Assembly (NCBI RefSeq): GCF_022846255.1
Contig: NZ_AP025682.1
DNA: 64,000 nt
Reading direction: 5' to 3' (one strand)
Source of the DNA: Escherichia coli
GTDB taxonomy: Bacteria; Pseudomonadota; Gammaproteobacteria; Enterobacterales; Enterobacteriaceae
Position numbers and translations under genes: made by a program. The notes beneath the pieces are model-generated. The model was given only the letters and a program-made list of their open reading frames with translations, was not told the origin of the DNA and did not search any database. Positions 4,625 to 24,685 of the stretch are shown here, one piece after another; position 1 is the stretch's first letter; every line of letters starts with the position of its first letter.

Positions 4625-4642
4625 CGCATTGATGCACCTTAA

Positions 4643-4677: not shown

Positions 4678-4704
4678 AAAATCAGTGGCTGATTACCATA
4701 CCCA

Positions 4705-5718: not shown

Positions 5719-5729
5719 AAACAAATCCT

Positions 5730-8222
5730 TTAACGACAAATATAAACTTTATTCTCATCAATAACGTTATCAAAGGTAATAGTGCAGAATTGTTCCTGCT
5801 GTTTATTAACCGAGACGCGAATCGACGCGGGAACATCATTGGTGCGAATAAATATCCGACTTCCCTGTCCTACTAAGCCCACATTATTGCCACTTTCATC
5901 TTCAACCTCATAACCAAACGGCAACGGAGAGCCATCAGGTCGTTGGGAGATGAAATACCAGGGCTTGCGTTTATCAGTCTCAAACTGCGTCATCACTACC
6001 GCACCACGATAAGGAACGGTGTTTTTACGGTTACCCAGTAGCGCCACATCGCTTTTACTGTCGGCAATATCCAACATCAACGTATTTTCACGATACGGCG
6101 TCAGGTTGTCATAAATAGCGTAGCCTCTGCTATCCGTGGTCAAGTAACGATATCCCTGCACCGCAGCCCCCTCCAGCCCAGGTGCTTTGACAATGGCAAA
6201 CGTATCGGAAAGTCTGGGAGCCAGTGCCACCCCGTCCGACCACGCGACGAAACCGCCTTGAATATTACCGCTAACCTGTTGATATCTTTTCGACTGGCTA
6301 TAGCTGCCACCAATAGTCGCCAATGGCGCACGCCAGGTCAGGTTTCCACCTGCTGTTGTTTCGCTGCCCTGGTGTTGATGGCTCAAGTTTGCCCCGTAGC
6401 TGAACTGATCGCGGCTCCCCGCTACACCGCTGAGGCTGGTATTATTCGACCGATAGCCGTCTTTATCAAAAGTGGTCGAGTTAGAAACAAATAAATCTCG
6501 TCGTTTTTCAGTGATTCCATCGCCCCACGAGAAGGGAATTGAGAAATATAAGTTAATGCGTCTATCTTCGCGGTTATCTTCGTCGTAGGTCTGGCTAACA
6601 GACAAGGTATAACTAAGGCGTTCCCAGGAGTTCGAATAGCTGAGTTGATAATCTTTCCCTGTCCCGCTGCGTTCCCAATAATCCCGCCATTGACCGCTGA
6701 CCGACAGATATCCCCAATTTTCCGGTAATGACTGGTTTATATTTACAGAAAAGCTGTTCTTACGACCAAAATCGTACTGATAATAGTCGGCGATATCATA
6801 AACTGAGTCATCTTCTCGATTATAACTTTTCCTGTTATTTGCCCTCACGTGATCGTTAAAAGTACGATAATCTCGAGAAGAATAACGCCAGGCCGCCAGC
6901 GAAAATTGCGTTCCACTTTGAGAGAGATATTTGTTCCACGCAATCTGATAACTTTGACCATTAAACACATCACCGTTATCTTGTTCACTGTGGGAATGGG
7001 TAAAATCAACAGATACCGCACCAATCGGTGTATTCCATCCCGTGCCGAGAACAAACGATGAGTAATTATCAGACAACTGCGTGCCAGCATAGAGAGTCAG
7101 CAAATTATTAAGGCCATACTGATAGCTTCCCTGAATAAAATCTGACTGATCGCTGGCTCCCTCAATACGGCTACGTCCGACAGCAAATTCATATTTCGAA
7201 ACGCCCGGTTGCAACATATTTGGTACCGATGAATAAGGTACACGATAACGCGACACCGAACCGTCAGCTTCTTTAACGGTAACTTCCAGATCGGCACCAC
7301 CACCTGCAAGTTGCAAATCATCAATGGCGAATGGACCTGGCGGAACTTCTTTCTGGTAAACCACAAAGCCATTTTGTTCGATAGTGACAAGTGCGTTACT
7401 TTGGGCAACACCACGCACCACAGGCGTAAAATTCTGTTTAGAGTTCGGCAACATCTGCATATCGCGCCAAAGGCGTACACCGCGAAAACGCACGGAGTCA
7501 AAAACATCAGAACCGGTATACATTTCACCAGCACGCAATGTGCCAAGAATATGTGGAATTCCGCGCTCCAGATATAACGTGTTACTCTTCCATTTACCGC
7601 TGTTATCGTCACTTTTCGTATAATTGGCATTTGAATGCAACTGCCAGCCCAGCAGATTCAAACCACTATTCAGATTTAAATAGCTACTTTTATTATCTCC
7701 TCCGTGCTTATAATTACTGTAATACTGACTGGCATAATAAGAAGTATATAATGCGTTAATCCCACGATCCCATGCCTCAGGTGGAACATATCCGCGTTCA
7801 TACTCAACAACATAGGCCTGGGGTACACTCAACTTCAGGTTAAAATGCCCAATATCATAGTCAACGCTACCTCCCTGTACTGCATCCCGAAGAGGTACGC
7901 ATTCTACGCCTTTATCAATATTAATTCCTTCAGTGAGGATACCTATTTGCTTTAACTGCTCCCAAGATAAACATGTCGCATCCGGATCATCTTTAATGTC
8001 GACATTATAGTGTCCGCGCCACTGATTATTCAGGTAAACATCCATATCATAGATACCTGGCATCGGCTTATCACTATCAATATGATAGTCAGAAATTTTT
8101 TCCCCATTTAATCCGCCAATCATAAAATGGGTGTCAAATGTTTCATCTTCCGCCCATGCAAGCGACGTTGCCAACACCGACAGGATAGCCAGCGTAATAG
8201 AATTAAGTTTAGACATAATCAA
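5730..8222 (-). CDS. fimbrial outer-membrane usher protein
   Basis: 830-aa ORF with signal peptide; size and position after the chaperone are typical of PapC/FimD-family ushers. Confidence 0.9.
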   Translation of the reverse strand: MIMSKLNSITLAILSVLATSLAWAEDETFDTHFMIGGLNGEKISDYHIDSDKPMPGIYDMDVYLNNQWRGHYNVDIKDDPDATCLSWEQLKQIGILTEGINIDKGVECVPLRDAVQGGSVDYDIGHFNLKLSVPQAYVVEYERGYVPPEAWDRGINALYTSYYASQYYSNYKHGGDNKSSYLNLNSGLNLLGWQLHSNANYTKSDDNSGKWKSNTLYLERGIPHILGTLRAGEMYTGSDVFDSVRFRGVRLWRDMQMLPNSKQNFTPVVRGVAQSNALVTIEQNGFVVYQKEVPPGPFAIDDLQLAGGGADLEVTVKEADGSVSRYRVPYSSVPNMLQPGVSKYEFAVGRSRIEGASDQSDFIQGSYQYGLNNLLTLYAGTQLSDNYSSFVLGTGWNTPIGAVSVDFTHSHSEQDNGDVFNGQSYQIAWNKYLSQSGTQFSLAAWRYSSRDYRTFNDHVRANNRKSYNREDDSVYDIADYYQYDFGRKNSFSVNINQSLPENWGYLSVSGQWRDYWERSGTGKDYQLSYSNSWERLSYTLSVSQTYDEDNREDRRINLYFSIPFSWGDGITEKRRDLFVSNSTTFDKDGYRSNNTSLSGVAGSRDQFSYGANLSHQHQGSETTAGGNLTWRAPLATIGGSYSQSKRYQQVSGNIQGGFVAWSDGVALAPRLSDTFAIVKAPGLEGAAVQGYRYLTTDSRGYAIYDNLTPYRENTLMLDIADSKSDVALLGNRKNTVPYRGAVVMTQFETDKRKPWYFISQRPDGSPLPFGYEVEDESGNNVGLVGQGSRIFIRTNDVPASIRVSVNKQQEQFCTITFDNVIDENKVYICR

Positions 8223-8230
8223 TCCCTGAT

Positions 8231-8911
8231 CTATTTGACGGTTTTTACTTTTTCACTCAAATAGTTCCCATGGTCATCAATCAGCGTAATTGTATATTGA
8301 TTGATGGCTAAGGCTGTGGTGATAGTCTTATCTGACCAGGGGGCTAATAACAACGTTTCGTGATTTATTTTTCCACTTCCCATCAACTCAGGAATAGTTA
8401 TCCAGTTTGCGGAGTTGTTTTTGATATTAATACCACCATTGGCATGCTTAATGCTCAGACGACGAAAACTTTCTTTATCTACGCCAGTAAGTCCCTCTGG
8501 GCGGTAGATAAATTTAATACGATTCTGCATGGCGAATTTTATGCCATTCTTATCTTCTAATTCGGGGCAATTAGGTGGGATGTCTAGCACATTAAGGAAG
8601 AATAGGCTTTCGCGATCTTTTGGTAGTGTATTCGCCAATTTTTTGATTTTGAGTTGTTGCCCTTCCCCCCCTTTTACGTGAGCGACCGGTGGCGTCAACA
8701 CAAACGGAACATGAATTTTTTCTGGGGGTAGACTGGTATCGCCATCATCAATCCATGACTGAACCAGGGCGCTACGATTACCTTCATTCATTAACTGAAC
8801 GGTAATCTCTTTTTTCTTTTCTGGATAAATAACACGAGTGCCGTAGATATAGACACCACTCCACGCAGGCGTGACTATGCCGGCCAGCAAGAAGGCTATT
8901 AATTTTTTCAT
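8231..8911 (-). CDS. fimbrial periplasmic chaperone (PapD/FimC family)
   Basis: 226-aa ORF with signal peptide MKKLIAFLLAGIVTPAWS; size and operon position. Confidence 0.88.
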   Translation of the reverse strand: MKKLIAFLLAGIVTPAWSGVYIYGTRVIYPEKKKEITVQLMNEGNRSALVQSWIDDGDTSLPPEKIHVPFVLTPPVAHVKGGEGQQLKIKKLANTLPKDRESLFFLNVLDIPPNCPELEDKNGIKFAMQNRIKFIYRPEGLTGVDKESFRRLSIKHANGGINIKNNSANWITIPELMGSGKINHETLLLAPWSDKTITTALAINQYTITLIDDHGNYLSEKVKTVK

Positions 8912-8964
8912 TAAACAATCCTTGTTTGAGAAATCGGCGACCGAAGCCGCCGATAAACACGATA

Positions 8965-9513
8965 TTAATCTGTCACGACAGTCATTGTCAGAGCAGAGTT
9001 AACCGGGCCAGCAGTCACCGCATCACCTGATTGCGCGTATTTCGCACTGAAATTTAGTGTATATTCATTAGAGCTGTTTTTTTCTAACTCAATACTTTTA
9101 TCACCGTCAATCTGTTGAGATTGCCCATCTGCACTCTCATAGTAGACAGCAAAACCAGCACCATTTGGGTTTGCCACAGTATTAATGGTGATATCGCTAC
9201 GATTTGCATCAAACTGACTTCTGGAAAACGTAATTCTGGGAGTCTCATCTCCTGTACATTTGACCGTCAGCGGTACAGTTGTTTTATTTGAATAACCATC
9301 ATAAATATAACCAGCGCTCTTACCATCAAATTGATCAGCACCAATATCGTTCATAGCAATAGTAGCCTGGCTATTTCCGATAAATTGACAAGTAGTTCCA
9401 ACCACATTACCGGTAATAACTAACTCACCCTGTTCACTCCCCTCCTCTGCAAAAGCCCCTGCACTCATAAAAAGAGAAGATAATACTGCAACTGCAATAA
9501 TTGAACGTTTCAT
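8965..9513 (-). CDS. fimbrial major subunit (type 1 pilin-like)
   Basis: 182-aa ORF with signal peptide ending AFA, paired Cys residues, first gene of the operon. Confidence 0.85.
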   Translation of the reverse strand: MKRSIIAVAVLSSLFMSAGAFAEEGSEQGELVITGNVVGTTCQFIGNSQATIAMNDIGADQFDGKSAGYIYDGYSNKTTVPLTVKCTGDETPRITFSRSQFDANRSDITINTVANPNGAGFAVYYESADGQSQQIDGDKSIELEKNSSNEYTLNFSAKYAQSGDAVTAGPVNSALTMTVVTD

Positions 9514-9892: not shown

Positions 9893-10447
9893 TCAAAACC
9901 AGGGAATAGTGGCGGTTGCGCTTAATCCGTAACTACTAAATTCCCCTTTAACCGGTTCAGTAAGCAAATCACCATGACGGATAAACAGCTTGAACTGCTG
10001 CTGACTCGACAAACTATTCATATTAAGAAAGGGTAAATCGGTCCGCTGTTCAGCCTGCGTCGCCAGTCGCTCAATCGCCTGTTCTTCAGTTAGCCAGCCT
10101 TTTTTCACTGAACGCCTTAACAGACGCTGAGGGTTACTTTTTACCTGTACACGACTTACGACTCGCCAGCCTTTAATTTCAGGTACTAGCGTGACAGGCG
10201 AACATTGGCAGTAATCAGTAAGCCCTTTACGCCACGTAGAGGCTTCAAGTTCTTGCAATGCGGGGGCACTGCCGTGCAAGCGTAAACGCGCTCCCGGCGT
10301 AACATTCACGTCCGGGAAACTCACGCCGATATCACCTTGCCCTCTTGCACCTAATGCCCGATGCAATTTGGCAAATAACGCCGCCATCAACATTTCGCTC
10401 GAAAATTCAGGATCTGGCAGAACGCGGATCTCAAGGTAGTGATCCAT
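9893..10447 (-). CDS. cas6f: Cas6f / Csy4 crRNA endoribonuclease
   Basis: ORF 9893..10489 trimmed to MDHYLEIRVLPDPEF..., the recalled Csy4 N-terminus; AGGAG RBS 7 nt upstream of the ATG at 10447. Confidence 0.92.
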   Translation of the reverse strand: MDHYLEIRVLPDPEFSSEMLMAALFAKLHRALGARGQGDIGVSFPDVNVTPGARLRLHGSAPALQELEASTWRKGLTDYCQCSPVTLVPEIKGWRVVSRVQVKSNPQRLLRRSVKKGWLTEEQAIERLATQAEQRTDLPFLNMNSLSSQQQFKLFIRHGDLLTEPVKGEFSSYGLSATATIPWF

Positions 10448-10457
10448 TGGCAGCTCC

Positions 10458-11459
10458 TTATTCCGATTTCTCACCAAAGACACCGCCACGGATCAGCACA
10501 GCCATCACGTAGCGCTGCTGATCAACGTCTGGTTTCATCCCTTTAGTCACCCAATTGTCCAGTAAGGTATAAAAGTCGAGTTTTTCTTTCGGTTGACGGC
10601 AGGCCACACCGCGACTGGTTACAGAACCGTAAGGTTCCACGGCTATAGCCCCCAATTCATCAACCTTTGGATGCCAGGTATCAATGGTACGTAAAGCATT
10701 GCCAATCTTCTGAGAGTGAATACCGGCAATGCCAGCCACCTGGTATAACACGCGACTTTTACTACTGTTGCTGTCGAGTACCAGCTCCTGCGACGGAAAA
10801 ACTTCTTGCCCGGCACCAAGACGAACCTGCGCTTCAACGGTAAGCATCACCCACTCTTTTGCGCTTAATCCTTGCTCTATAATGGCCGCCAGCTGCGTGA
10901 CCGCTGCCTGTCCCTGGTCAAATTGACGTAAAGAGAAGTCATGGCTGTTAAAAGTCCAGGAAGTGTCGTTAGCAGTAACTTTCACCTGGATCTGCTCAGC
11001 ACCAATGCGGTTGCGCCACAGAAAACGACCATTTGCCAGATTCAGCGCATAGCGAAGCGCCAGCTCTTTAAAGCCATGTTCGCTGATGTAACCTTCAATG
11101 ACCCCGGAAAGCGCCTCCTGGTAAGCCATATCATTACATACTGACGGTGTGGATAAATTACCCAGCACACGCAGCGTAAACACCACCTTTAACGTATCCG
11201 CATCTACCGGAAGCGAAGCCACATCCACCCGTTGCAGGTTAGCTTTTTGGATTTCAGCATCCAGTTTTGTGGAGTCACTGGTAATCGTATTTTTCAAGCG
11301 ATTAGAGATAGTTCCGCGAACCGCTTTCTCCTGAATCTCAATGGGTTGCCATACATTTCCTTGCCAGTTACCTGCGTACATTACCGCGTCAGATGTTGCC
11401 AGTTTGCGCTCAAATGCCAGTACCGATGCCGTTTTTATTACTACAGGAGCCTTTGCCAT
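10458..11459 (-). CDS. cas7f: Cas7f / Csy3 (Csy complex backbone)
   Basis: 333-aa ORF; size and operon position between csy2 and csy4. Confidence 0.9.
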
Positions 11460-11469
11460 AATTATGTCC

Positions 11470-12393
11470 TTATTCTAAATCGTCATATTCATTAAAAGTA
11501 AAATCATCACCAGCTGGCATTGCCGAGCAATAGTAGCCAGTGTCCGTTGTGCGGTAACGCCACATCAGCGGTTGCAAGTCAGTTATGCGATGTAATCCGC
11601 GCCATTCGCCGATGCCATATACCGCTTCGGCAAAAGCAAATGGCGTCACGGTGTCGCGCGCATTTTCAACTTCACCGGGTGCGTAAACAGGAGAAATGCG
11701 TTGGTAGCCACACATTAACGGTACCAGGAAACCAGGCATTGGCTTCGGCTGATATGTCCATTTTGCGCTGTTGTCTTCTGCCGGAGATTCGGCCTGATAT
11801 TTAACGGCAGCAAAATCAAGCCAGGCATCCAGCAATGAGATGTCGGGATGTTGTTGGTGATGTTCAGCCAGCCATTCACTGCGATCGTAAAGCGCATAGC
11901 CAGGCATTAAACGCCAGATGATTTTACGCAGTTGCTTTTCATCTTCAGGCGCATGAAAAAGCTGTGGTTCGCGCATGTCAACAATGCTGCCGCCCGCCAG
12001 TTTGTGGCTCTGGCAGAGCATTTTCAGATGGTCACACAGAGCTTTTCTGCCATATTCACCATTGGTGATTTCCCCTTCACATTCAATGAGCAAAGATACC
12101 GTCAGATGCATACGGCCCTCTTCATTGAACGAAGCGGTTTTACCTTCTCTGGTTAGTGGGTTACGGGTGAGAGCAAACTGAAAATACCGCCCAGAGCTAT
12201 ATGCCTGAATATGTTGTTCATGGCTAACTACCGCGCAACCGTCAAAACTTACGCCAAAATCATCCGCCACTTTGCGAGAAAGCGCATGAACATAGCCGAG
12301 AAAATGGGTCATCGCCGGGAATCCCCAGGTCAACCCGGAGACGGCGTTAGCGTTTTCGATACGTATATGGGGTAACAAGAGCAGATAACTCAT
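11470..12393 (-). CDS. cas5f: Cas5f / Csy2
   Basis: 307-aa ORF; 4-bp overlap with csy1; operon position. Confidence 0.88.
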
Positions 12394-13697
12394 TTCAGCG
12401 CCTCCTGCAAAACAGCTTCCATTTCACGCATCCGTTGAGCGAACAGAGACTGGCTGCGCCATTCTCTTTGCTCGACAGCGCCCACGTCGAAACTGGATTT
12501 TTTCAGGCGATAGTTGAGCCAGCGCGCAAAATCATCGGCCACCGCCCCCTGCCAGTCGTTTTTCTCCCGCTCCAGTTTGAAAACCTCATCGGACAGGCTT
12601 CGCCACGGATCCAGCCAAAGCTGCTGATGGCGAGGTAAATCTTGCGATTGCGCTGACCATCCCTGCCATTTTTCTTGCTGAAAAGCGGATGCCTGCATGA
12701 ACAGCAGATCGATCAACTCATCAATATATTTCGCCCGCGCAGTTCGGATATGAACATTATTTATGTCAACCTTCAACAGGTAAGTCATCCGGGCGATAAT
12801 GCCCGAAGCCGCCCTATTGAAATCGCCGCGTAAGGCAAAAATACTGAGCATGTTTTGTGGTGCGCGATCCAGCGTCGCCCAGGTAGGCGGCATTGACGGC
12901 AACAGCCAGACGCGCCCCCCACGCACACTATTGAGCAATGAAATATTTTGCGGTTTTGTGCCTCCGAAATGCATTTCAGCAAGATTCGGGAAACGAATAT
13001 CTGGCTGTGAGTGCCATTTACCTGCTTTGTGCGCTTCGCGAATGGCTTTCGATTCCTCACTAAAGCGCACGGCGGTTAGCTTTTCATACATCGCCTGCGC
13101 CAGTGAACTGGAAAACAGTGGGCATAAGAGGTGATAACCATCCGCAACAGGGAAATAGATTTGTTTTGCCAGTTTATGGCTGGCAGGCCGTCCAGTTGTC
13201 CATGCCTGGCTAAACCCAGCTACCCACTGCTCCAGTTGCGCTTTATCCTCTGCAAACGTACTTAATGCCTGATAATCACCACGCTTCAGGCTGGCAAGCA
13301 GTGAATCTCCGTTCACATCAGTTTGTAGCAACTTTGCGACGTCAAGTGCAGCGGCGTTACCAATCGCGTCAGTAGCGACATTCGCCAACGATGCCGTGTT
13401 TAAATAGCTTTCGTTAGCGGAGGTTTCCAGATAAAAGCTACTGGCTTTAGAATCACCATGACTGAATTTAGCGCCATGAGTGACTAATTTGATTTGCCCG
13501 GCACGCTTTGCCGCATCCGTTAACCAGTGACGAGGCAGGTAGCGTGCCTCGAGTTCCTGCCGCTCCTGAGCGATGACGCTGGCATCCTCGCCCTGTTCCA
13601 GTCGCTTTGTTGCTTCTTTTTCAAAGGCCTCGACTTTGGGTTGCCTTCGCGAAGCGATATAGTCAGTGATAAATTGTATTAGCGCCGTTTTTTCCAT
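12390..13697 (-). CDS. cas8f: Cas8f / Csy1 (large subunit)
   Basis: 435-aa ORF; AGGAG RBS upstream; operon position. Confidence 0.9.
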   Translation of the reverse strand: MEKTALIQFITDYIASRRQPKVEAFEKEATKRLEQGEDASVIAQERQELEARYLPRHWLTDAAKRAGQIKLVTHGAKFSHGDSKASSFYLETSANESYLNTASLANVATDAIGNAAALDVAKLLQTDVNGDSLLASLKRGDYQALSTFAEDKAQLEQWVAGFSQAWTTGRPASHKLAKQIYFPVADGYHLLCPLFSSSLAQAMYEKLTAVRFSEESKAIREAHKAGKWHSQPDIRFPNLAEMHFGGTKPQNISLLNSVRGGRVWLLPSMPPTWATLDRAPQNMLSIFALRGDFNRAASGIIARMTYLLKVDINNVHIRTARAKYIDELIDLLFMQASAFQQEKWQGWSAQSQDLPRHQQLWLDPWRSLSDEVFKLEREKNDWQGAVADDFARWLNYRLKKSSFDVGAVEQREWRSQSLFAQRMREMEAVLQEALK

Positions 13698-13940
13698 CTC
13701 GGCTCCTTTCGTTAATCCATCAAATTGAAGTTGCTCCCTGACTTCACTGAAAAATCTCCGTAGCCCAACCAGGCTTCAGTACAACGACGCATACAGCAAA
13801 AGGGACAACACCCGTGGTGATAATCATGGATAGCTCACCTAGAGGTATCTACGTTTTAATCTAGTAAAATCCATGCAATAACCAATAGTGATATTACCAT
13901 GCATGAAATATTTGCCACACAATGATTTAAAAACTAACAT

Positions 13941-14016
13941 TCACGCACTGCCGTTGGCAGCTTAGAAATAGAGGTATCTCCGGATACGGACTTGTAAACT
14001 GCCGTACAGGCAGCCC
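13941..14016 (+). repeat. two degenerate CRISPR repeat-like sequences in the cas3-csy1 intergenic gap, inverted relative to both arrays
   Basis: 13946-13968 CACTGCCGT-T-GGCAGCTTAGAAA (loop shortened from 5 to 3 nt); 13998-14014 ACTGCCGTACAGGCAGC (17-nt exact repeat core); consensus orientation is on the + strand, opposite to the arrays. Confidence 0.6.
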
Positions 14017-14024
14017 GCGCCCCT

Positions 14025-17000
14025 TCACGGGGCGCGGTACACACCTAACCAGGGGTGATAACGCCAGTCATCGACCACATCTTCTTCACTGACGGGTACT
14101 CTCACCTCAGCAAACTTTTCCCCAACGCTTGCTATCTCACAACCTTGCTTATCAGCTAAATTCAACAAAACGTGTTGGTAATCCATCACGCCCCAGCAAG
14201 CGACACCGCTGGCGCATCTCACCTCTTCTCGCCTGAAATTCCCTTGCGCTTTACGCTCGTTGTCGCCCGTACGGGAATAGAAACGCGCTTCGCTTTCTTC
14301 ATCATCCATATGCAGAAAAAATACCGCCTCCGGCAAAGGGGAATAACGAAATGGCGTCTGGCGCTGTATCCAGCCGTTCCAGCTTAGCGGTGCACGCCAC
14401 CATTGCGCCGCCACCACATGTTTGCTTTTACTGCTCATCAATTCGGCGGATAAACGACTATGTTCTAGCTCCGCCAGTTTGTTGGCATTATTGGCAGACA
14501 GGATCCGCGGCAAGGCGTTAATCGTCCGGTAGTCCGCGATCGGAATCAGTTCGCAAATATCGTGGCTATTCAGCAAGTGTTCTTTTGTTTCGAAACCAGG
14601 CTTACAAAATGCGGGGGCTTTTTTCTGCAATGATTTGATATTGCTACGCAAAATAACCAGATTCTCACTGGTCGGCACATTTCTACGGTGGCGCTGAATA
14701 CGTCCGGCAAATTGAATTATCGAACGCATGGAGCTTGGTTCGATAATTCCCCAATCCGCATCCCAGTCACGCCCCACTTCTATAACCGATGTCCCCAACA
14801 CCACAAACAGATGGTGCGATTCCGGACGGTTATGTAAGGCATCTGCGATATCTTCGTTGTTCCAGAAATCGAGTTCGTTATGACGGGTAAAAGCGCGGTC
14901 CAGTCGCTTCTCAATATCTGAACGCACCGCCAGCGGGTGTCGGGAGTGGTAAACACAATAATGAATACAAACATTTTCTGGTGAAGGAATGGCAATCAGG
15001 GCTTTGGTCACTGCAACCAGTGGATTGATATTCGCGAAGCGCACCAGGCCCAGCGAAACGGTTTTACCGCTTTCGTGTAGCTGGCGATGCGCCTGATGCA
15101 ACTTCAGCATTTGCGTATGCACCGTCTGGGCCACACTTTCGGTAACATCCTGGATTGCAACTGATGCAGATGAAATCGAAGCAACACGCCCGAAATGCAG
15201 CCGCTCTTTTTCAGCCAGCATTACCGCCCGCCTGGCAACAAATTTTGTATGCGCATCGCGAAAGGCCGCTCCATCGCTAATTTGCGTGGCATCAGCATCG
15301 TTTTCGTCAAACCAGGCACAGCAAATATTGACGGGCCTGCCGTTGGTACCACAAGACGCCTGCCACATTTTACGCCCGGCAAGATAAGCCGCGAACAGCG
15401 CCTGAATCAGGCCTGGCGGAAGCGTCGCCGAAGAGAGTAACACCCGCGTTCCCAGCATCCCGGCCCAGTTCATCAAACGACATACCGCATGAAGATCAGC
15501 AATATCAAAGTCGTCGGGTTCGTCGAGCACTAAATCGCTGGTTAACAGACGCAACATCGCCGGAAGCTGTTTCCCGCCACGCACACCCTCGGTCGCGGAA
15601 ATAAGATGATCAATTGTCGCGACCAGAATCGGCGCGCTCACTAACGCCTTAAGTTTGCTGTCATCCTTCAACCATTTTTCCAGCGCCCCGGTATGCAGGC
15701 TGCCTTCGTACTTAACGAACTGTTGCTCCTCTGCCGGCGACTCTTGCGAGGCACTTCCACAATCATTGTCTATTTTTTCCTGCTGCCAGAGCTGTTTAAC
15801 TGCCGCCGAACCAATTAATACCGCCAGCTCATCCTCACCGAGTCCAAGTCGACTACGCAGAGCATCGCCGGTTTGCAAAGTCAGCGTACGCAATCCCAGC
15901 GCGACGGTAAAACGGCACCCTTCCCGCTCATCGGCAAGCGCATACATAATGCGGGCGTTCGCAAAGGTTTTACCGCACCCCGTCGAGGCCATATTAACGC
16001 CGAAAAATCCCTCCTCCCGGCTTCGTTCACGTAACGCTCGCGCCACATCCGAGGCTTTATCCTGCCAGCGATATTTCGCATCTGTAGCTCGCTGGCTAAA
16101 ACCTTTATGTCGGGCAATTGCCGGAAGAGAAGCCCGTGTGCGCATCAGCTGCCGCCCAAGCAAAAACGCATGATGTGCGACGCCGACCAGGTGCTCGTCC
16201 ACCCGTTGTTTGAGTGCGCCACTTTGCCTATCGCTATTTGCCCAGACGATATAATCCGGCTCCTGCCATTTTTGCTGCGCATCGCTTGAGGAATAGTAAT
16301 GATCGGCAAGCATCAGGCAAAAACGCGCCATATGTGAGGGGAACAACTGTTCCATCAGCCCGTATGTCTTTAAACCGAGCGCGTTACTTGCCCGGCGGGA
16401 AATCTGATGTGCTTTTTCTCGCCAGCTAGCACTCTGAAGCGGTGTTCCAGCCGGAAATTGCCAGACGTGCGCAAAATCCTGTTGTAACCAGTCATCTCTG
16501 CGGTGGTTAACGGCATTCCAGTCAGCATTAAGTTGCCTTTCCAGCCAACTTTCACACCCTTTGCAAGATTGTTCCGGTTGTGGCGAAAGATTCTCCGGAA
16601 TTCGATGATGGGAAAGGATCAGCCAACCTACCGTTTTGGCTAGCGGTTGCAGCGAAGTAAATGGGCTATCTGAAAATTGAGGCGTGTCTTTTAGCAGGCG
16701 TTCCAGAATCGCAGATTCATCATCTGCCGTAAGTTCGCCAAGCTTCGCCAGCCACACATCGTCGGGCCGATCACCGACAAACGCCTGAAAGAGCCGCAGT
16801 GAGATCCATTCATGTCGGTATGGTTGATAACTGCGGGCATTCTTTTGGGTCAGGCTTTGCTGAAAGCTGCGTCCGGATTTTCCAAAATCATGAAATAACC
16901 CGGCGATGGCTGCCAGCAGCGCAATGCTTTCCGCACATTGCCAGCGGTTTTCTTCCTTGTTCACCAGGCTGGTTTGCGTTGTGCGATTTGTGGGAACGCG

Positions 17001-17258
17001 CCCCTGAGCATTAAAACGACGAATATTACCCACAATCCACATCAACTCAATTTGTCCATTCTTCTTTAGCCAGTGACATGCCACTGCGGTATTTCGCCTG
17101 GCAGTTTTGCGCAGTAAACGGCGGAGTGTATTAACGCCTTCCAGAGTAATCACTGTTTGCCATGCGGCATCACCTGTACGTTCAGCAAACTGATCAATAA
17201 TACGGCAGCTTTCCACGCGGGCGTTTTTTGTACAGCGCGAGATAATCAGAACATTCAT
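14025..17258 (-). CDS. cas3: Cas2-Cas3 fusion (Cas3f: N-terminal Cas2, HD nuclease, helicase)
   Basis: 1077-aa ORF; N-terminus MNVLIISRC...FAERTGDAAWQT resembles recalled I-F Cas2/3; HD motif LFHDFGK; 4-bp overlap with cas1. Confidence 0.95.
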   Translation of the reverse strand: MNVLIISRCTKNARVESCRIIDQFAERTGDAAWQTVITLEGVNTLRRLLRKTARRNTAVACHWLKKNGQIELMWIVGNIRRFNAQGRVPTNRTTQTSLVNKEENRWQCAESIALLAAIAGLFHDFGKSGRSFQQSLTQKNARSYQPYRHEWISLRLFQAFVGDRPDDVWLAKLGELTADDESAILERLLKDTPQFSDSPFTSLQPLAKTVGWLILSHHRIPENLSPQPEQSCKGCESWLERQLNADWNAVNHRRDDWLQQDFAHVWQFPAGTPLQSASWREKAHQISRRASNALGLKTYGLMEQLFPSHMARFCLMLADHYYSSSDAQQKWQEPDYIVWANSDRQSGALKQRVDEHLVGVAHHAFLLGRQLMRTRASLPAIARHKGFSQRATDAKYRWQDKASDVARALRERSREEGFFGVNMASTGCGKTFANARIMYALADEREGCRFTVALGLRTLTLQTGDALRSRLGLGEDELAVLIGSAAVKQLWQQEKIDNDCGSASQESPAEEQQFVKYEGSLHTGALEKWLKDDSKLKALVSAPILVATIDHLISATEGVRGGKQLPAMLRLLTSDLVLDEPDDFDIADLHAVCRLMNWAGMLGTRVLLSSATLPPGLIQALFAAYLAGRKMWQASCGTNGRPVNICCAWFDENDADATQISDGAAFRDAHTKFVARRAVMLAEKERLHFGRVASISSASVAIQDVTESVAQTVHTQMLKLHQAHRQLHESGKTVSLGLVRFANINPLVAVTKALIAIPSPENVCIHYCVYHSRHPLAVRSDIEKRLDRAFTRHNELDFWNNEDIADALHNRPESHHLFVVLGTSVIEVGRDWDADWGIIEPSSMRSIIQFAGRIQRHRRNVPTSENLVILRSNIKSLQKKAPAFCKPGFETKEHLLNSHDICELIPIADYRTINALPRILSANNANKLAELEHSRLSAELMSSKSKHVVAAQWWRAPLSWNGWIQRQTPFRYSPLPEAVFFLHMDDEESEARFYSRTGDNERKAQGNFRREEVRCASGVACWGVMDYQHVLLNLADKQGCEIASVGEKFAEVRVPVSEEDVVDDWRYHPWLGVYRAP

Positions 17259-18244
17259 TGATCAGCCTTAGCCAGTGCCTGGGCAGTTTCCTGCAAAGAG
17301 GTGATCATGACATCCAGCGCATCCGTTTGTTGAAAGATATTGATGCAGCGTAGACGAAACTCCTGGGCATCTTCACCTGCCATCGCGGCGATAAATGCTT
17401 GCGGCATCACAAGGGCATCTTTAATCAGATCGGCAAGGTCAAAAACCAGCCCGCCGCGACGTGTTTTACCGTGCATTACTGCTAAACCGTGCGGGATCCC
17501 GGTTACCCACGCCGCCACTGCTGCCAGTCCATAAGCCAGATAATTCCCTTGATCGAGGAAGCGGTTGGCCATATCAATACCACCGCCCCGTTTTGCGCGA
17601 GTGAAATCGCCATACCCCACTGTTTGACTGACCATTTTGTATAACGCTTTAGTCAATTTGGCCTCTACGAGCATAAGCTGCGTATGGTTTTCTGCCGCGT
17701 CTATTTCTTCACGAGTACGATTCAGGAGGGTATGCAGCGCATTAACATCAGGTTGAAATGCGTGTTCACGCTGCATTTTCGAGCTGGACCAGTGCTTATC
17801 GATATGTGTCAGGCGGATTAACTGAAAACGTTTCGCGGCGGCAAGTCGTTTATCTTCAGCAAACCAAAAAGAAACCCACTGCTGGAGATACTCTGTAGGG
17901 CGATATTCACTTTGTGGGCTGAGCCAGGAGACATCAACATCCACTTCATTTGCCGAATACAGCGGCGTGCCATCCGTACCACAAAAGCCCACCATCACCC
18001 CGGCATGAGCAAATTCACGCATCGCCGCCTGAGTAACGGAAGTTCCCATTCCCAACATCAATGCCGTGGTATTCGCAATGGGGATATTCCAGTAGTACGA
18101 CTCTTTACCTTCGCTGGTGACATACTCCACCCGCCCACCATTCACCTGTACCCGGCATTTTTCCAGATAATAAATATTGGCGCGTTTGGAGTGGAGAATG
18201 GTTTTGAGATCGGAAGGCGTGAGGTAATTCGAAGACATAAACAC
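17255..18244 (-). CDS. cas1: Cas1 integrase (type I-F)
   Basis: 329-aa ORF; SDLKTILHSKRANIYYLEKCRVQVNGGRVEYV resembles recalled I-F Cas1. Confidence 0.95.
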   Translation of the reverse strand: MFMSSNYLTPSDLKTILHSKRANIYYLEKCRVQVNGGRVEYVTSEGKESYYWNIPIANTTALMLGMGTSVTQAAMREFAHAGVMVGFCGTDGTPLYSANEVDVDVSWLSPQSEYRPTEYLQQWVSFWFAEDKRLAAAKRFQLIRLTHIDKHWSSSKMQREHAFQPDVNALHTLLNRTREEIDAAENHTQLMLVEAKLTKALYKMVSQTVGYGDFTRAKRGGGIDMANRFLDQGNYLAYGLAAVAAWVTGIPHGLAVMHGKTRRGGLVFDLADLIKDALVMPQAFIAAMAGEDAQEFRLRCINIFQQTDALDVMITSLQETAQALAKADQ

Positions 18245-18409
18245 ATCCTGTGATTATTTTATATTTGAAGGTATTGGGCTTAGTACAGCATTGATTTATG
18301 TGCTGAAAATTGATTTCTGTCGCAATTATTACGATTGTTATTGTATGCTGAAGCTAATGGTTTGAAGTTGAGAGCGTCATGATATGACCAAACGTCTACC
18401 ATTATCGTA

Positions 18410-19277
18410 TTGTGAAACTACCTGTACGGCAGTGAACCGCGTAGAGCTGCTGCGCAAACTCGACACTCATTTCTAAGCTGCCTGTACGGCAGTGAACCCT
18501 CGTTCATCAAGGTGCTCAAAGCTTGACATTTTCTAAGCTGCCTGTACGGCAGTGAACGCCAAGAACGCTGTTACCGCTTCCCTGTGCGCTTTCTAAGCTG
18601 TCTGTACGGCAGTGAACCCAGATTGCCGAAAACATCGCCTTTGATGAACTTTCTAAGCTGCCTGTACGGCAGTGAACGGGCGCGGTGTCGTCCAGGATTT
18701 GGAGGCAACTTTCTAAGCTGCCTGTACGGCAGTGAACAACAGGTCGTCCAGCGCATCCCACGGATCCGGTTTCTAAGCTGCCTGTACGGCAGTGAACATC
18801 GCGCACACGCAGTCTTACATTTGCCACCATTTCTAAGCTGCCTGTACGGCAGTGAACGAGTGATTATTATGGCCCAATCGGACGATGACTTTCTAAGCTG
18901 CCTGTACGGCAGTGAACCTCCACCCGTGGTAAGCAGAAAGGGCCGTAACTTTCTAAGCTGCCTGTACGGCAGTGAACTGATCTGTTGCGATACTGACAGT
19001 ATCGTTAGCTTTCTAAGCTGCCTGTACGGCAGTGAACTGTTTTTTTGACGTGTAAACCGGGCGGTTTTTTTTCTAAGCTGCCTGTACGGCAGTGAACATC
19101 TCCGTATTTACTGTCCTCCCTGCTATCCATTTCTAAGCTGCCTGTACGGCAGTGAACTGCCAGTTTCGAAAACGTGCAGCAAATGCAGTTTTCTAAGCTG
19201 CCTGTACGGCAGTGAACTACCTTAATTTGAAATGAACCTTTGCCGCATATTTCTAAGCTGCCTGTACGGCAGTGAAC
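18410..19277 (-). CRISPR. CRISPR array 2, type I-F repeat; 15 repeats / 14 spacers
   Basis: same 28-bp repeat at a strict 60-bp period (starts 18410, 18470 ... 19250); all spacers 32 bp; degenerate terminal repeat at 18410-18437 (cas1-proximal); one variant repeat at 18590-18617. Confidence 0.97.
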
Positions 19278-19425
19278 TCAAATACTACACGTTTAGCTCG
19301 TTGTTGATAAAGAAAAATCATCTCATTTTCCTGCTGCCACCCTTTTTTATTCTTACCTTCCAGCACCATTAATTATCAACAACTTACCTTCACCTCCAAA
19401 AATAGGGTTTTCACCGTTCCCCCCT
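19278..19425 (-). promoter_or_regulatory. putative CRISPR array 2 leader
   Basis: AT-rich sequence next to the conserved end of the array, between the array and the clpA terminator; promoter not mapped. Confidence 0.4.
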
Positions 19426-19464
19426 ACAAACAAAAAGTCCGTAACCTCTTTCGAGATTACGGAC
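19426..19464 (-). terminator. rho-independent terminator of clpA
   Basis: 8-bp stem GTCCGTAA/TTACGGAC; on the minus strand it is followed by a T-rich tract. Confidence 0.6.
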
Positions 19465-19489
19465 TTCACCAACCTACCTAACAATTAGA

Positions 19490-21766
19490 TTAATGCGCTG
19501 CTTCCGCCTTGTGCTTTTGTGCACTCTGGAATCCGTAAGTCAGCTCATTTTTATCTTTATCCAGCGCAACCGTCACCTGACCGCCGTCCACCAGCGAACC
19601 AAACAACAGTTCGTTGGCGAGCGGTTTTTTCAGGTTGTCCTGGATGACACGCGCCATCGGACGTGCGCCCATTGCCCGGTCGTAACCTTTCTCGGCCAGC
19701 CAGTTACGCGCTTCCTGGCTCACTTCCAGAGAAACACCTTTCTGATCCAGCTGAACCTGCAACTCGACGATGAATTTATCCACTACCTGATGGATCACGT
19801 CGGTGGAGAGATGATCGAACCAGATAATGTTGTCGAGACGGTTACGAAACTCCGGCGTAAAGATCTTCTTGATCTCTTCCATCGCATCAGTGCTGTTGTC
19901 CTGGTGGATAAGACCAATCGATTTACGCTCAGTTTCTCGTACCCCAGCGTTGGTGGTCATCACCAATACCACGTTACGGAAGTCCGCTTTGCGTCCGTTG
20001 TTATCGGTCAGCGTACCGTTGTCCATCACCTGCAACAGAATATTGAACACGTCCGGATGCGCTTTCTCGATTTCGTCCAGCAGCAGTACCGCGTGCGGAT
20101 GCTTGATGACCGCATCGGTCAGCAGCCCCCCCTGATCAAAACCAACGTATCCCGGAGGCGCACCAATCAGACGGCTGACGGTATGGCGTTCCATATACTC
20201 GGACATATCAAAGCGCAGAAGCTCAATGCCCAAAGCTTTCGAAAGCTGTACCGTCACCTCTGTTTTCCCGACCCCGGTAGGACCGGCAAACAGGAACGAA
20301 CCGACCGGTTTATGTTCGTGACCTAAACCTGCACGCGCCATCTTAATGGCTTCAGTCAGCGCCTCAATGGCTTTATCCTGACCGAAGACCAGCATTTTCA
20401 GGCGATCGCCGAGGTTTTTCAGGGTATCGCGGTCACTCTGCGAAACACTCTTCTCTGGAATGCGCGCAATACGGGCCACCACGGACTCAATATCCGCCAC
20501 ATTAACGGTTTTCTTGCGTTTGCTTACCGGCATCAGGCGTGCGCGAGCGCCCGCTTCGTCGATAACGTCAATGGCTTTATCCGGCAGATGACGATCGTTA
20601 ATGTATTTCACCGCCAGCTCTACCGCTGCACGCACCGCTTTTGCGGTATAACGCACGTCGTGGTGCGCTTCATACTTCGGTTTCAGGCCATTGATGATCT
20701 GTACGGTTTCTTCTATCGACGGTTCAGTAATATCAATTTTCTGGAAGCGACGCGCCAGAGCACGGTCTTTCTCGAAAATGTTGCTGAACTCCTGATAGGT
20801 TGTCGAACCAATTACGCGGATTTTACCGCTGGAGAGCAACGGTTTAATCAGGTTAGCCGCATCGACCTGGCCACCAGACGCTGCACCCGCACCGATAATG
20901 GTGTGGATCTCATCAATAAACAGGATGCTGTTAGTGTCCTGCTCCAACTGCTTGAGCAACGCTTTAAAACGTTTTTCAAAGTCGCCGCGATATTTTGTGC
21001 CCGCTAACAGAGAACCGATATCGAGAGAGTAAATCGTACAGTCAGCCATCACTTCCGGCACATCGCCCTGAACAATTCGCCAGGCAAGCCCCTCCGCAAT
21101 CGCGGTTTTACCGACACCAGACTCCCCCACCAGCAGCGGGTTGTTTTTACGGCGACGGCAGAGAACCTGAATAGCACGCTCCAGCTCCTTCTCACGACCA
21201 ATCAGTGGGTCGATTCCGCCCACTCGCGCAAGCTGATTCAGGTTCGTCGTGAAATTCTCCATACGTTCCTCCCCACCAGCTTGTTCTTCGCTGTTTGGCT
21301 GGCTGCCAGGATCAGAAGACTGTGTCGGCTCGTCTTTACGCGTGCCATGAGAGATAAAGTTCACCACATCGAGACGGCTGACTTCATGTTTGCGCAACAG
21401 ATATGCCGCCTGCGACTCCTGTTCGCTAAAGATAGCGACCAGAACGTTTGCACCGGTAACCTCATTGCGACCGGAGGACTGGACATGGAAGACCGCACGT
21501 TGCAGTACACGCTGAAAACTCAGCGTCGGCTGTGTGTCGCGCTCCTCTTCACTGGCAGGCAGAACGGGTGTGGTTTGTTCAATAAAGGCTTCCAGTTCCT
21601 GACGGAGCGCAACCAAATCCACAGAACACGCTTCCAGCGCCTCCCGGGCAGATGGGTTACTGAGCAGCGCCAGTAACAAGTGCTCGACGGTCATAAACTC
21701 ATGACGGTGCTCGCGCGCTCTGGCGAAAGCCATATTTAAACTGAGTTCCAGTTCTTGATTGAGCAT
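19490..21766 (-). CDS. clpA: ATP-dependent Clp protease ATP-binding subunit ClpA
   Basis: ORF 19490..21781 trimmed to [24 protein letters not shown]...; two AAA+ modules. Confidence 0.95.
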
Positions 21767-21796
21767 AGGCACCTCCCCCAATTTTTATGCCTGCAT

Positions 21797-22117
21797 TCAG
21801 GCTTTTTCTAGCGTACACAGCAATGGATGCTCATTCTCCCTCGCGTACTTGTTCACCATCGCCACTTTGGTTTCTGCAACCTCAGCGGTAAAGACTCCGC
21901 AAATGGCCTTCCCCTGGTAGTGAACAGCGAGCATCAATTGCGTTGCACGTTCTACATCATAAGAAAAGAATTTTTGTAACACGTCAATAACAAACTCCAT
22001 CGGAGTATAATCATCATTGACTAATATCACTTTATACATAGATGGCGGTTTTAGCGCGTCGCGAACTTTTTCTTCCGCCAGTTGATCAAAGTCCAGCCAG
22101 TCGTTCGTTTTACCCAT
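21797..22117 (-). CDS. clpS: ClpS adaptor protein
   Basis: 106-aa [50 protein letters not shown]... Confidence 0.95.
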
Positions 22118-22439
22118 TGTCAGTTATCATCTTCGGTTACGGTTATCGGCAGAACGCCCTGCCGCTGACAAGAGCTTATTTGCCTGACCAATCTACTCCA
22201 CATGATAGATAACTATCATCTATCGTTGGCATCAGCGACATCTGTCACATTCCTGTCAATAGCGTTAACTGCTTCAAATTTTTGATTCATACCTGCCCCC
22301 TGGCCCCTGTCAAATGCTTGACGGCTCGCCCTAATTCTCTAAATTGTATTTCTAGAGTTGGCGAGGTTTTGAACAGCCCCCTCTCTGACCCCGGTTTATT
22401 CCATCTTACTTGTATAAGATTTGCGAAGGATGTCGAAGC

Positions 22440-22664
22440 ATGGAAAAGGGTACTGTTAAGTGGTTCAACAATGCCAAAGGGTTTGGTTTCATCTGCCCTG
22501 AAGGCGGCGGCGAAGATATTTTCGCTCATTATTCCACCATTCAGATGGATGGTTACAGAACGCTAAAAGCTGGACAATCCGTTCAGTTTGATGTCCACCA
22601 GGGGCCAAAAGGCAATCACGCCAGTGTTATTGTGCCCGTCGAAGTAGAAGCGGCAGTCGCGTAG
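22440..22664 (+). CDS. cspD: cold-shock-like protein CspD
   Basis: ORF trimmed to MEKGTVKWFNNAKGFGFICPEGGGEDIFAHYSTIQMDGYRTLKAGQSVQF... (74 aa). Confidence 0.92.
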   Translation: MEKGTVKWFNNAKGFGFICPEGGGEDIFAHYSTIQMDGYRTLKAGQSVQFDVHQGPKGNHASVIVPVEVEAAVA

Positions 22665-22701
22665 CTCTTCTGTCTCATTGTGTACATCCTAAAGGCAAAA
22701 T

Positions 22702-22727
22702 GCCAGCCCGATCGGCTGGCATTTTTA
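22702..22727. terminator. bidirectional terminator between cspD and macB
   Basis: hairpin GCCAGCC-CGATC-GGCTGGC flanked by T-tracts on both strands. Confidence 0.5.
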
Positions 22728-22738
22728 TCCCAAACAAA

Positions 22739-24685
22739 TTACTCTCGTGCCAGAGCATCTACTGGATCCAGTCGTGCCGCATTTCGTGCGGGTAACCAGC
22801 CAAATAAAATCCCGGTGACCGTCGAGCAAAGAAACGCCAGCAGCAGTGCCAACGGTGAAAAACCAATCTCCCAGCCGGGTAAGAAAAGCTGCAAGGTGAA
22901 AGCAATTAACAGTGACAGTGTTATTCCCAACGCGCCACCAACCAGGCAAACCAGTACGGCTTCGATCAAAAACTGTTGCAAAACATCGCTTGCTCGCGCA
23001 CCTACAGCCATGCGAATGCCAATTTCCCGCGTCCGCTCGGTCACTGACACCAGCATAATATTCATTACACCAATACCGCCCACCACCAGCGAAATCACCG
23101 CAACCAGCGTCAGAAACAGTTGTAAAGTACGTGTGGTCTTTTCAACGGTTTTCAAGACGCCATCCATGTTCCAGGTAAAGAAATCCTTCTTACCGTGGCG
23201 CAGTGAAAGTAAACGCGTGAGTTGCTGTTCCGCCTCAGCGCTGTCAAAGCCTTCTTTCACCCTGACAGTAATGGAGTTCAGCCACGACTGCCCCATAACT
23301 CGCCCGGACATCGTGCTGTATGGCAGCCAGACACGCAGCACTTTACTGCTACCAAACATCGACTGTTTTTCTTCCGCCACACCAATGACTCTGGCGGGCA
23401 TATTGCCGACCAGAATCACCTCGCCAACCACATCTGCTTTATGGGGGAAAAGCTGGCGGCGAGTATTACTGTCGAGAACCACGACCTGCGCACGACCGTT
23501 CAGCTGCTCCTGATTAAAGGTGTTCCCTTCACTGAAGGTCATGCCATAGACATTAAAATAATCGCCGCTCACGCCATTGGCACTGGCAGCCACATCAACA
23601 TTGTTATAACGCAGGCGCAGGTTTTGCGAGACGGCGGGCGTGGCAGAGGCAACCCACGGTTGTTTTTGGATGGCGATTAAGTCGTCGTACTTCAGCGCCT
23701 GCTGATATTGCGGATCGTCATCGCCAAAATCTTTCCCGGGATAGACATCAATAGTATTCGTACCAATAGAACGAATATCCGCCAGCACCATTTGTTTAGC
23801 GGCGTCGCCCACCACGACAATGGAAACCACCGACGCAATACCGATAATAATCCCCAGCATGGTCAGTAAAGTACGCATTTTATTCGCTGCCAGCGCCCGC
23901 CATGCCATCGTCAGCGCCTCGTTAAAACCGCTGACAAACTGCCGCCAGCCAGACGCCGTGTTGACAACAGGTTCCGTTCCGCCAGTAGCATTCACTTTTT
24001 CAACGGCGGGAGGATTGCGCACAATTTCGCCGTCGCGAATTTCGATCACCCGCTCGGCCTGAGCAGCAACCTGCGGATCGTGGGTGACGATAATCACCGT
24101 ATGCCCGCGATCGCGCAGCTGATGCAGGATCGCCATCACCTCTTCGCCAGAATGGCTGTCCAGTGCGCCGGTCGGTTCATCGGCAAGAATTACCTGACCG
24201 CCGTTCATCAATGCCCGCGCGATACTGACGCGCTGTTGCTGGCCACCCGAAAGCTGTGCCGGGTAATACTCTGTACGGTCTTCCAGCCCCAGTCGTTGCA
24301 GTAACTCCTGGGCGCGAAGCAGCCGCTGTTTCCGCTCAAGACCGGCATAGACGGCGGGTACTTCAACGTTCTGCTCGGCGGTTAAATGCGAAAGCAAATG
24401 GTAACGCTGGAAAATAAAGCCGAAATGCTCGCGGCGCAGTTGCGCCAGCGCATCGGCGTCCAGCGTGGCAACATCCTGACCGGCGACGCGATAGGTGCCG
24501 CTGGTGGCCTTATCCAGGCAGCCGAGAATATTCATCAGGGTCGATTTACCGGAACCCGAAGCGCCGACAATCGCCACCATCTCACCGGCATAAATATCGA
24601 GGCTGATGCCCTTCAGCACCTCAACCTGCTCATCACCGGCAGGATAGCTGCGACGAATATCCTTTAATTCGAGCAAGGGCGTCAT
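22739..24685 (-). CDS. macB: macrolide export ABC transporter MacB (ATPase/permease)
   Basis: 648-aa ORF with N-terminal ABC ATPase (GASGSGKST) and C-terminal FtsX-like permease. Confidence 0.95.

Follow-up and report, generated by a model that had tools for sequence, protein, structure and literature searches.

A conserved trailer with a predicted activator-dependent promoter separates the clpA-proximal CRISPR array from cas1 in an Escherichia coli type I-F1 locus

The arrays CRISPR4.1 and CRISPR4.2 of Escherichia coli flank the cas-F genes between clpA and infA (PMC3903273, PMC3506596). Expression of cas1 has been reported in strain LF82, and co-transcription of the array with cas1 lay outside the scope of those studies (PMC3506596, PMC4509574). 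In the I-F system of PA14 (CRISPR1 - cas1 ... csy4 - CRISPR2) the cas genes are also flanked by two arrays, with repeats reported in one orientation (PMC3634792, PMC6700203); the gene numbering suggests that these arrays are directed like the cas genes. The PA14 cas1 promoter, Pcas1, requires a Vfr box, works in lacZ fusions and is regulated by Vfr and quorum sensing (PMC9563714). The cas1 promoter of Pectobacterium atrosepticum is a class II promoter activated by CRP-cAMP, with a box TGTGA-N6-CCAAA centred at -41.5 (PMC4499141), and a CRP box has been predicted upstream of cas1 in Shewanella (PMC12887000). In Pectobacterium cas1-csy4 form one operon, whereas no RT-PCR product spanning the cas2/3-csy1 spacer was obtained in E. 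coli LF82 (PMC3506596). Finally, CRISPR transcripts of Salmonella and Vibrio are subject to termination by Rho, according to a study of Rho and BoxA-Nus that covers only leaders running from cas2 to the array and does not mention I-F (PMC7665894), and Rho also acts on the CRISPR leader transcript and the I-F arrays of PA14 (PMC6700203).

We analysed a window of 64,000 nucleotides, which the clpA-clpS-cspD-macB segment (99.2% identical to E. coli) identifies as E. coli chromosome. A complete type I-F1 CRISPR-Cas locus was found on its minus strand, between infA (2772-2990) and clpA. Reading from clpA, this strand carries a terminator, a leader, Array 2, a trailer, cas1, cas2-3, csy1-3 and csy4/cas6f (Table 1). 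The Cas_Csy4 domain (cas6f/csy4) was recognised by Pfam, csy1-3 were assigned by ORF order and by lengths matching the annotated E. coli locus, and the I-F1 gene set is complete. The start of cas2-3 shares 4 nt with the end of cas1, which puts both genes in the same transcription unit. The repeats, the gene set and the clpA-infA site place the locus in type I-F1 (E. coli CRISPR-III), and in this canonical locus Array 2 corresponds to CRISPR4.1, the array next to clpA.

Table 1. Coordinates of the features of the type I-F1 locus in the window.
Feature	Position	Strand	Description and basis
clpA	19490..21781	minus	gene upstream of the Array 2 leader; Pfam Clp/AAA domains
clpA intrinsic terminator	19427..19467	minus	15-bp hairpin, then TTTTTGTTTG; terminator scan
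Array 2 leader	19278..19426 (~150 nt)	minus	adjoins the clpA terminator
Leader motif ACCCTATTTTT	19408-19398	minus	
Leader IHF-consensus site TAAGTTGTTGATA	19386-19374	minus	
Leader motif AAAAAAGGGT	19348-19339	minus	
Array 2 (E. coli CRISPR4.1)	18410..19277	minus	15 repeats, 14 spacers of 32 nt
Degenerate terminal repeat GTTCACTGCCGTACAGGTAGTTTCACAA	18410..18437 (read 18437-18410)	minus	22 bits with Rfam DR4, under the gathering score
Trailer / cas1 upstream region	18239..18409 (171 nt)	minus	no intrinsic terminator; C>G; unstructured; conserved above synonymous sites
CRP-box-like site TGCGA-CAGAAA-TCAAT	18309..18324 (read 18324-18309)	minus	conservation and approximate CRP matrix
Candidate extended -10 TGcTGTACT	18282..18290 (read 18290-18282)	minus	18 nt downstream of the CRP-like box
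cas1 (cas1f)	17255..18238	minus	327 aa from ATG at 18238; Pfam Cas_Cas1
cas2-3 fusion	14025..17258	minus	Pfam Cas3_I-F_Cas2 and Cas3 C-terminal domains; ORF list
Array 1	4152-3103		infA side, beyond csy4/cas6f

The E. coli CRISPR-III loci of LF82, ED1a and UTI89 (CRISPR4.1 - cas1-cas2/3-csy1-4 - CRISPR4.2) share with our locus the site, the repeat and the gene order, as well as the clpA-adjacent leader and the degenerate form of the terminal repeat, and their 171-nt trailer is homologous. The arrangement of an array before cas1 in the same direction has thus already been described for E. coli (PMC3903273, PMC3506596). In contrast to those loci, the I-F module of the window is a divergent allele on a 99% E. 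coli backbone, with a Cas1 that is 95-96% identical in amino acids. A search of 5,426 complete E. coli genomes detected the junction formed by the terminal repeat, the trailer and the cas1 start in 240, with identities of 90-95% and none above 95% at the nucleotide level, and the E. coli annotation at this junction reads CRISPR | cas1f | clpA. A further difference is the insertion, between tRNA-Ser (4496-4583) and cas6f, of an operon for chaperone-usher fimbriae (4705-9513), which separates cas6f from the tRNA-Ser/CRISPR4.2 side.

Array 2 comprises 14 canonical 28-nt repeats GTTCACTGCCGTACAGGCAGCTTAGAAA, exact or near-exact and with a 60-nt period, and one degenerate terminal repeat. Its polarity toward cas1 is well supported by four independent lines of evidence. 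First, Rfam CRISPR-DR4 (RF01317) matched only the minus strand, with scores of 40-50 bits for the 14 repeats, above the gathering score of 35. Second, the degenerate repeat, which retains its stem thanks to a G-U pair and is conserved in Escherichia alleles, lies at the cas1-proximal end. Third, the opposite flank (examined over 19433-19278) contains three motifs, ACCCTnTTTTT, the IHF-consensus TAAsTnnTTGATw and AAAAAGGGT, that are common to the I-F leaders of E. coli, E. whittamii, Pseudocitrobacter, Rahnella, Erwinia and Salinisphaera and to the leader of Array 1; both arrays adjoin a leader and both leaders carry these I-F motifs. Fourth, natural interference in E. coli LF82 came from the leader-proximal spacer of CRISPR4.1 (PMC3506596), and CRISPR4.1 is the array on the clpA side, since it is the leader of CRISPR4.2 that lies beside the cas-F genes (PMC3903273). 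The initial annotation had placed Array 2 upstream of cas1 and co-directional with it, transcribed from a clpA-proximal leader, and these results bear it out: array and gene lie on the same minus strand. The clpA terminator insulates the leader from clpA transcription.

The initial annotation had further set this layout against many I-F loci in which the array would sit downstream of csy4 instead. That contrast is misleading, as the present locus has both arrays and an upstream co-directional array is common. Among 22 I-F loci from reference genomes, fetched with the Cas1 of the window, 10 had an array upstream of cas1, in all 10 cases co-directional with the gene. The gap was about 130-330 nt in eight of the 10 (E. 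coli, E. whittamii, Pseudocitrobacter, two Rahnella, Salinisphaera, Psychrobacter and relatives of this allele) and 1.2-2.4 kb in the other two, both Erwinia. The remaining 12 loci had no array upstream of cas1 in the DNA examined, which for a few comprised only 0.1-0.3 kb of upstream flank; expression of cas1 does not, therefore, generally depend on an upstream array. An array upstream of cas1 is a standard variant of the I-F architecture.

The gap between array and gene had been given as 165 nt, which holds for a GTG at 18244 as the start of cas1. The ATG at 18238 is the likelier start, because it is preceded by an AGGA Shine-Dalgarno sequence (18249-18246) and agrees with the annotation of E. 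coli orthologues, where cas1f is 984 nt long, and it gives a gap of 171 nt (18239-18409). The statement that this gap has no obvious hairpin followed by a T-tract was confirmed by two scans. A consensus scan found no terminator-like site on the minus strand over 18239-18470, and a permissive energy-based scan (hairpin dG <= -4 kcal/mol and at least 4 T in 8) found no terminator in the gap of the window and only marginal, loosely folded candidates in eight related loci. The gap RNA folded no better than shuffled sequences (z -0.55 and -0.57). A canonical terminator is detectable with the same scan, which recovered that of clpA at the boundary with the leader.

Taken alone, the missing terminator is weak evidence for read-through and says little about Rho-dependent termination. 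Shuffled sequence yields about 2 hits per 1.9 kb on both strands, that is about 0.1 per 171 nt on one strand, so that a random stretch of this length lacks a hit about nine times in ten and the absence is the chance expectation. The trailer of Array 1 has no such terminator either. Nor does a negative scan predict read-through, because the cas2-3/csy1 spacer has no canonical terminator by the same scan and yet was not crossed in LF82.

The cas2-3/csy1 spacer of the window, 330 bp long, holds a conserved mini-array on the plus strand. Its first repeat-like element (13940-13968) keeps the CTTAGAAA handle intact, and it is followed by a 25-nt spacer (13969-13993) and by a second repeat-like element (13994-14021) whose stem-loop is perfect; positions 13912-13940, immediately upstream, hold a promoter-like site. 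Upstream of csy1, at 13840, lies a CC-flanked site that the mini-array spacer matches over 14 nt, position 12 being the sole mismatch; in another E. coli allele the mismatches are at positions 6 and 12. Neither of these positions pairs in I-F complexes. E. coli and E. whittamii carry the same spacer sequence, and analogous elements were found in Rahnella. The element agrees with published descriptions of regulatory mini-arrays from I-F1 loci (PMC10120712).

We compared the trailer with the four-fold degenerate sites of cas1 in three relatives, and its identity was higher in each: 0.88 versus 0.69 for E. coli E69 (p=2e-5), 0.95 versus 0.86 for E. coli 503025 (p=0.003) and 0.55 versus 0.41 for Pseudocitrobacter (p=0.007). 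This excess over synonymous sites points to purifying selection on the gap. Within it, the half-sites TGCGA and TCAAT of a CRP-box-like site were invariant in seven Escherichia alleles, with a variable N6 between them (CAGAAA, TGGAAA, TGAAAA). The candidate extended -10 element (TGnTGTACT) was also invariant in the seven alleles save at the n position, and the region from this element to the Shine-Dalgarno sequence was largely so. The Pseudocitrobacter trailer is mostly unalignable and has a poor left half-site (CACGA), but it keeps the TCAAT half-site, the 18-nt spacing, an extended -10 element TGgTTTATT (TGn-TnTAyT) and the AATAATCACAGGATGTG 5' UTR. The spacing puts the centre of the CRP-like box at -41.5 relative to a transcription start predicted near 18275.

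The core of the box agrees with the CRP consensus (TGTGA-N6-TCACA) at 7 of 10 positions, a match expected about once per 300 nt by chance when flanks, spacing and conservation are ignored. With its A/T flanks the box scored 11.1 bits on a CRP matrix that is our own approximation of the published logo, and 15 positions in 128 kb scored as well, which corresponds to 0.02 per 171 nt. On this approximate matrix the score of the core falls between those of the validated Pectobacterium CRP box and the PA14 Vfr box. The Pectobacterium box also has an imperfect right half-site (compare TGCGA-N6-TCAAT here), and its centre at -41.5 is identical to the geometry predicted here; unlike here, that box lies about 200 bp upstream of cas1 and the arrays are downstream of csy4. 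The PA14 box (gctca-N6-tcaca) is unlike the present one, and the trailer sequences are not homologous.

The best sigma-70 matrix score in the gap was 8.1, below the 90th percentile of random 265-nt windows of the sequence, and a promoter scan predicted no minus-strand promoter in the gap. We rejected the idea that a strong constitutive sigma-70 promoter lies in either the gap or the leader, as no score rose above background. The lack of such a promoter is expected for an activator-dependent promoter but is also compatible with no promoter at all. From the conservation and the geometry, we infer promoter activity and dependence on CRP: the gap most likely carries the conserved promoter of cas1 itself, of class II activator-dependent design.

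The same conservation could have another origin. The TGCGA-N6-TCAAT site might be bound by a repressor, a different dimeric factor or some other regulator that is not CRP; alternatively, the conservation might reflect the 5' UTR or H-NS-type silencing instead of a class II promoter. The limited agreement of the core with the CRP consensus would fit this explanation, as would the high A+T content of the trailer (62-69%), which is like that of H-NS-bound regions, and the extension of the conservation through the 5' UTR, where AATAATCACAGGATGTG is invariant even in Pseudocitrobacter. However, the pattern of conserved half-sites around a variable spacer, in exact class II geometry with an extended -10 element, speaks against it, and cas1 is under CRP or Vfr control in three other I-F systems, in Shewanella by a predicted box only (PMC4499141, PMC9563714, PMC12887000). 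We are thus doubtful of this alternative and keep the CRP-type promoter as our working interpretation of the trailer.

Other possible contents of the gap and its surroundings were considered and rejected. Hidden decayed repeat-spacer units were not apparent, as the best repeat match was 15/28, with a random median of 14 and a 95th percentile of 16. A known structured RNA was not found either: Rfam at E<=1 returned only CRISPR repeats, in agreement with the fold z-scores given above. The sole ORF of the gap (40 aa, 18280-18402) has no Shine-Dalgarno sequence and its ATG is GTG in most E. coli alleles; about 3 synonymous versus 7-8 non-synonymous differences indicate near-neutral change, with no sign of coding constraint. 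Autoregulation of the cas1 promoter guided by a crRNA (CreR type) was also rejected, since none of the 31 spacers, nor the spacer of the mini-array, had at least 6 seed matches next to a CC PAM within 18200-18470 and 19278-19489. The last spacer differs between alleles.

Rho loads on RNA that is untranslated, unstructured, C-rich and G-poor. Rho-dependent termination was absent from the reasoning of the initial annotation, and the trailer resembles a Rho loading site in its composition: it is untranslated, unstructured and C-rich/G-poor over about 80 nt or more. In 78-nt windows the C/G ratio was 1.7-3.1 from 18414 to 18155, compared with values of 0.65-1.4 for the array and 0.12-0.5 for the leader, and over these 260 nt it was 1.97, within the top 0.3% of 260-nt windows in the sequence. 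Given this resemblance, hairpins alone do not decide whether transcripts end between 18245 and 18410. In the I-E systems of Salmonella and Vibrio, too, Rho has access to an array transcript that is long and untranslated (PMC7665894).

If Rho acted efficiently here, array transcripts would all end in the trailer or in the first codons of cas1, and cas1 would be transcribed only from its own promoter. Such complete insulation would agree with the extreme C/G ratio in both window sizes and with the unstructured, untranslated state of the trailer. On the other hand, C>G composition alone is a poor predictor of Rho sites, and ribosomes loading at the cas1 Shine-Dalgarno sequence, 171 nt downstream of the array, could rescue the polymerases. 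We consider complete insulation possible but rather questionable, and we favour, with modest confidence, a partial form of it in which cas1 is transcribed mainly from its own activator-dependent promoter in the trailer and read-through from the array is minor.

According to this preferred interpretation, Array 2 would be transcribed from its leader toward cas1, and the trailer would act as the regulatory region of cas1-cas2/3 and not as an inert spacer. The CRP-like box, centred 41.5 nt upstream of the predicted start, would drive cas1-cas2/3 together with the extended -10 element. The resulting 5' UTR, of only about 37 nt, would allow quick translation and would shield the message from Rho. 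Polymerases finishing the array would meet no intrinsic terminator, which makes some read-through into cas1 physically possible. Cas6f would cut at the terminal repeat and separate the pre-crRNA from the RNA downstream, and the remaining 171 nt of naked, untranslated, unstructured, C-rich/G-poor RNA would offer a good target for Rho before cas1 or just inside it. Since the trailer RNA would be a good Rho substrate, we expect read-through to be minor beside a dedicated promoter; the action of Rho and the relative share of the two routes are what we infer from the layout, the conservation and the precedents in other systems.

The initial annotation had proposed that pre-crRNA transcription could read through into cas1 and so couple the expression of the array to that of the adaptation genes. 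Part of this stands, as the polarity is right and no intrinsic terminator would stop the polymerase. The coupling itself is weakened by the conserved promoter-like module, by the rut-like trailer and by the LF82 result for the cas2/3-csy1 spacer. Read-through to cas1 is possible, and it is neither needed nor demonstrated. In its strong form, read-through from Array 2 would supply a substantial share of the cas1-cas2/3 mRNA and couple crRNA production to the adaptation genes, with the Cas6f cut at the terminal repeat freeing the cas1 message. The gaps of the window and of its relatives, which lack both intrinsic terminators and, in the window, a strong sigma-70 promoter, are consistent with this, as is the survey, where every upstream array points toward cas1 and none is opposed; the low constitutive expression of cas1 in LF82 would also fit leaky transcription (PMC3506596, PMC4509574). 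Against it stand the conserved promoter-like module, the purifying selection acting on the gap, the C>G untranslated trailer, and the fact that a missing terminator is expected by chance and is shared by Array 1. Independent cas1 promoters are known, moreover, in Pectobacterium, which has no upstream array, and in PA14, where the upstream-array layout is deduced (PMC4499141, PMC9563714).

Nor could an element for antitermination be established in the leader. A boxA/Nus element was rejected for lack of support: the best 12-mer, TTTCTTTATCAA (19315-19304), agrees with boxA (GCTCTTTAACAA-like) at 9 of 12 positions, and the E. coli alleles agree at 7 of 12 in an ungapped manual count. Overall, we regard a substantial contribution of read-through as unlikely, and slightly more so its specific version in which meaningful read-through is combined with a Cas6f cut that releases a cas1 mRNA with a 5'-hydroxyl end, while Rho on the C-rich trailer sets the amount passed. 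In the searchable literature we found no description of such coupling for I-F systems, and no report for or against co-transcription from array to cas1.

Transcription of cas1 mainly from the trailer thus remains our preferred interpretation, and its practical yield is modest: a concrete prediction, open to test, of the promoter of the E. coli I-F adaptation operon, comprising the box at 18324-18309, the -10 element at 18290-18282 and the start near 18275. This prediction is new, and it is of a kind known from other I-F systems. Were the version with the Cas6f cut true, the dosage of the adaptation genes would track array transcription together with the activities of Rho and Cas6f. If read-through were both real and substantial, the terminal repeat would double as an mRNA processing site, and the capacity for spacer acquisition (Cas1-Cas2/3) would be tied to crRNA production in a widespread I-F layout.

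The I-F module of the window was a divergent allele, whereas the backbone beside it was 99.2% identical to E. coli. The window Cas1 shared 95–96% amino-acid identity with its nearest Escherichia counterparts, and the nucleotide identity of the junction (terminal repeat of Array 2, trailer and cas1 start) did not exceed 95% across 5,426 complete E. coli genomes. A divergent module on an E. coli backbone suggests either module exchange or an unsampled lineage.

The region between tRNA-Ser(gga) and cas6f also differed from the reference arrangement: in reference I-F E. coli about 110 bp separate these two genes, while the window carried an inserted yehD-like chaperone-usher fimbrial operon of about 5 kb, assigned according to the Pfam domains Fimbrial, Usher and PapD. 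A 94% identical operon was found beside an annotated tRNA, in most cases tRNA-Ser, on E. coli plasmids of about 100 kb and in ETEC chromosomes; at least 80% of the operon was covered in only 31 genomes. Array 1 contained a G-to-A variant in its five leader-proximal repeats (GTTCACTGCCATACAGG...), as well as two 61-nt periods, because one 33-nt spacer was duplicated in tandem.

Features of the window other than the Array 2/cas1 junction, in window coordinates.
Feature	Position	Strand
Array 1	3103-4152	
Array 1 duplicated spacer, two copies	3404-3372; 3343-3311	
tRNA-Ser(gga)	4496-4583	plus
tRNA-Ser(gga) and fimbrial operon together	4496-9513	
Divergent I-F module	9893-19277	
Mini-array region	13838-14021	plus
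Mini-array target	13840-13853	
Mini-array promoter-like site	13912-13940	plus
Mini-array first repeat-like element	13940-13968	plus
Mini-array spacer, 25 nt	13969-13993	plus
Mini-array second repeat-like element	13994-14021	plus
Hairpin at cas2-3 stop codon	14016-14037	minus
Leader promoter-like pair	19310-19282	
C-poor, G-rich leader, sense strand	19480-19300	minus
Backbone	19490-23500	

The Array 2 leader contained a weak promoter-like pair, TTATCA-17-TAGTAT, with 5 nt between the end of its -10 element and the first repeat. A pair at the equivalent position was present in five divergent leaders of other I-F loci (L001, L003, L004, L010 and L020) and in the Array 1 leader, and the scores were at background level. 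This recurring position hints at a possible pre-crRNA start at the first repeat or inside it. The leader sense strand was extremely C-poor and G-rich (3–10 C against 20–28 G per 78 nt; C/G 0.12–0.5), the reverse of the trailer between Array 2 and cas1. Rho would be less likely to load onto leader RNA with this base bias.

The loop of a G+C-rich hairpin, CGCGCCCC-GTGA-AGGGGCGCG, held the cas2-3 stop codon; directly 3' of it lay an antisense copy of the second repeat hairpin of a mini-array, followed by TTTAC. This hairpin, uncalled by the terminator scan, may be a non-canonical terminator. The mini-array itself was degenerate, occupied the cas2-3/csy1 intergenic region and ran antisense to the cas genes, in agreement with the autoregulatory mini-arrays of I-F1 described by Shmakov et al. 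2023 (PMC10120712). Its spacer, kept in E. coli and E. whittamii, matched a CC-PAM-flanked target upstream of csy1 with position 12 as the sole mismatch; in one E. coli allele the target was mismatched at exactly positions 6 and 12. The mini-array could act as a roadblock, which could account for the absence of transcripts across the cas2-3/csy1 spacer in E. coli strain LF82 (PMC3506596).
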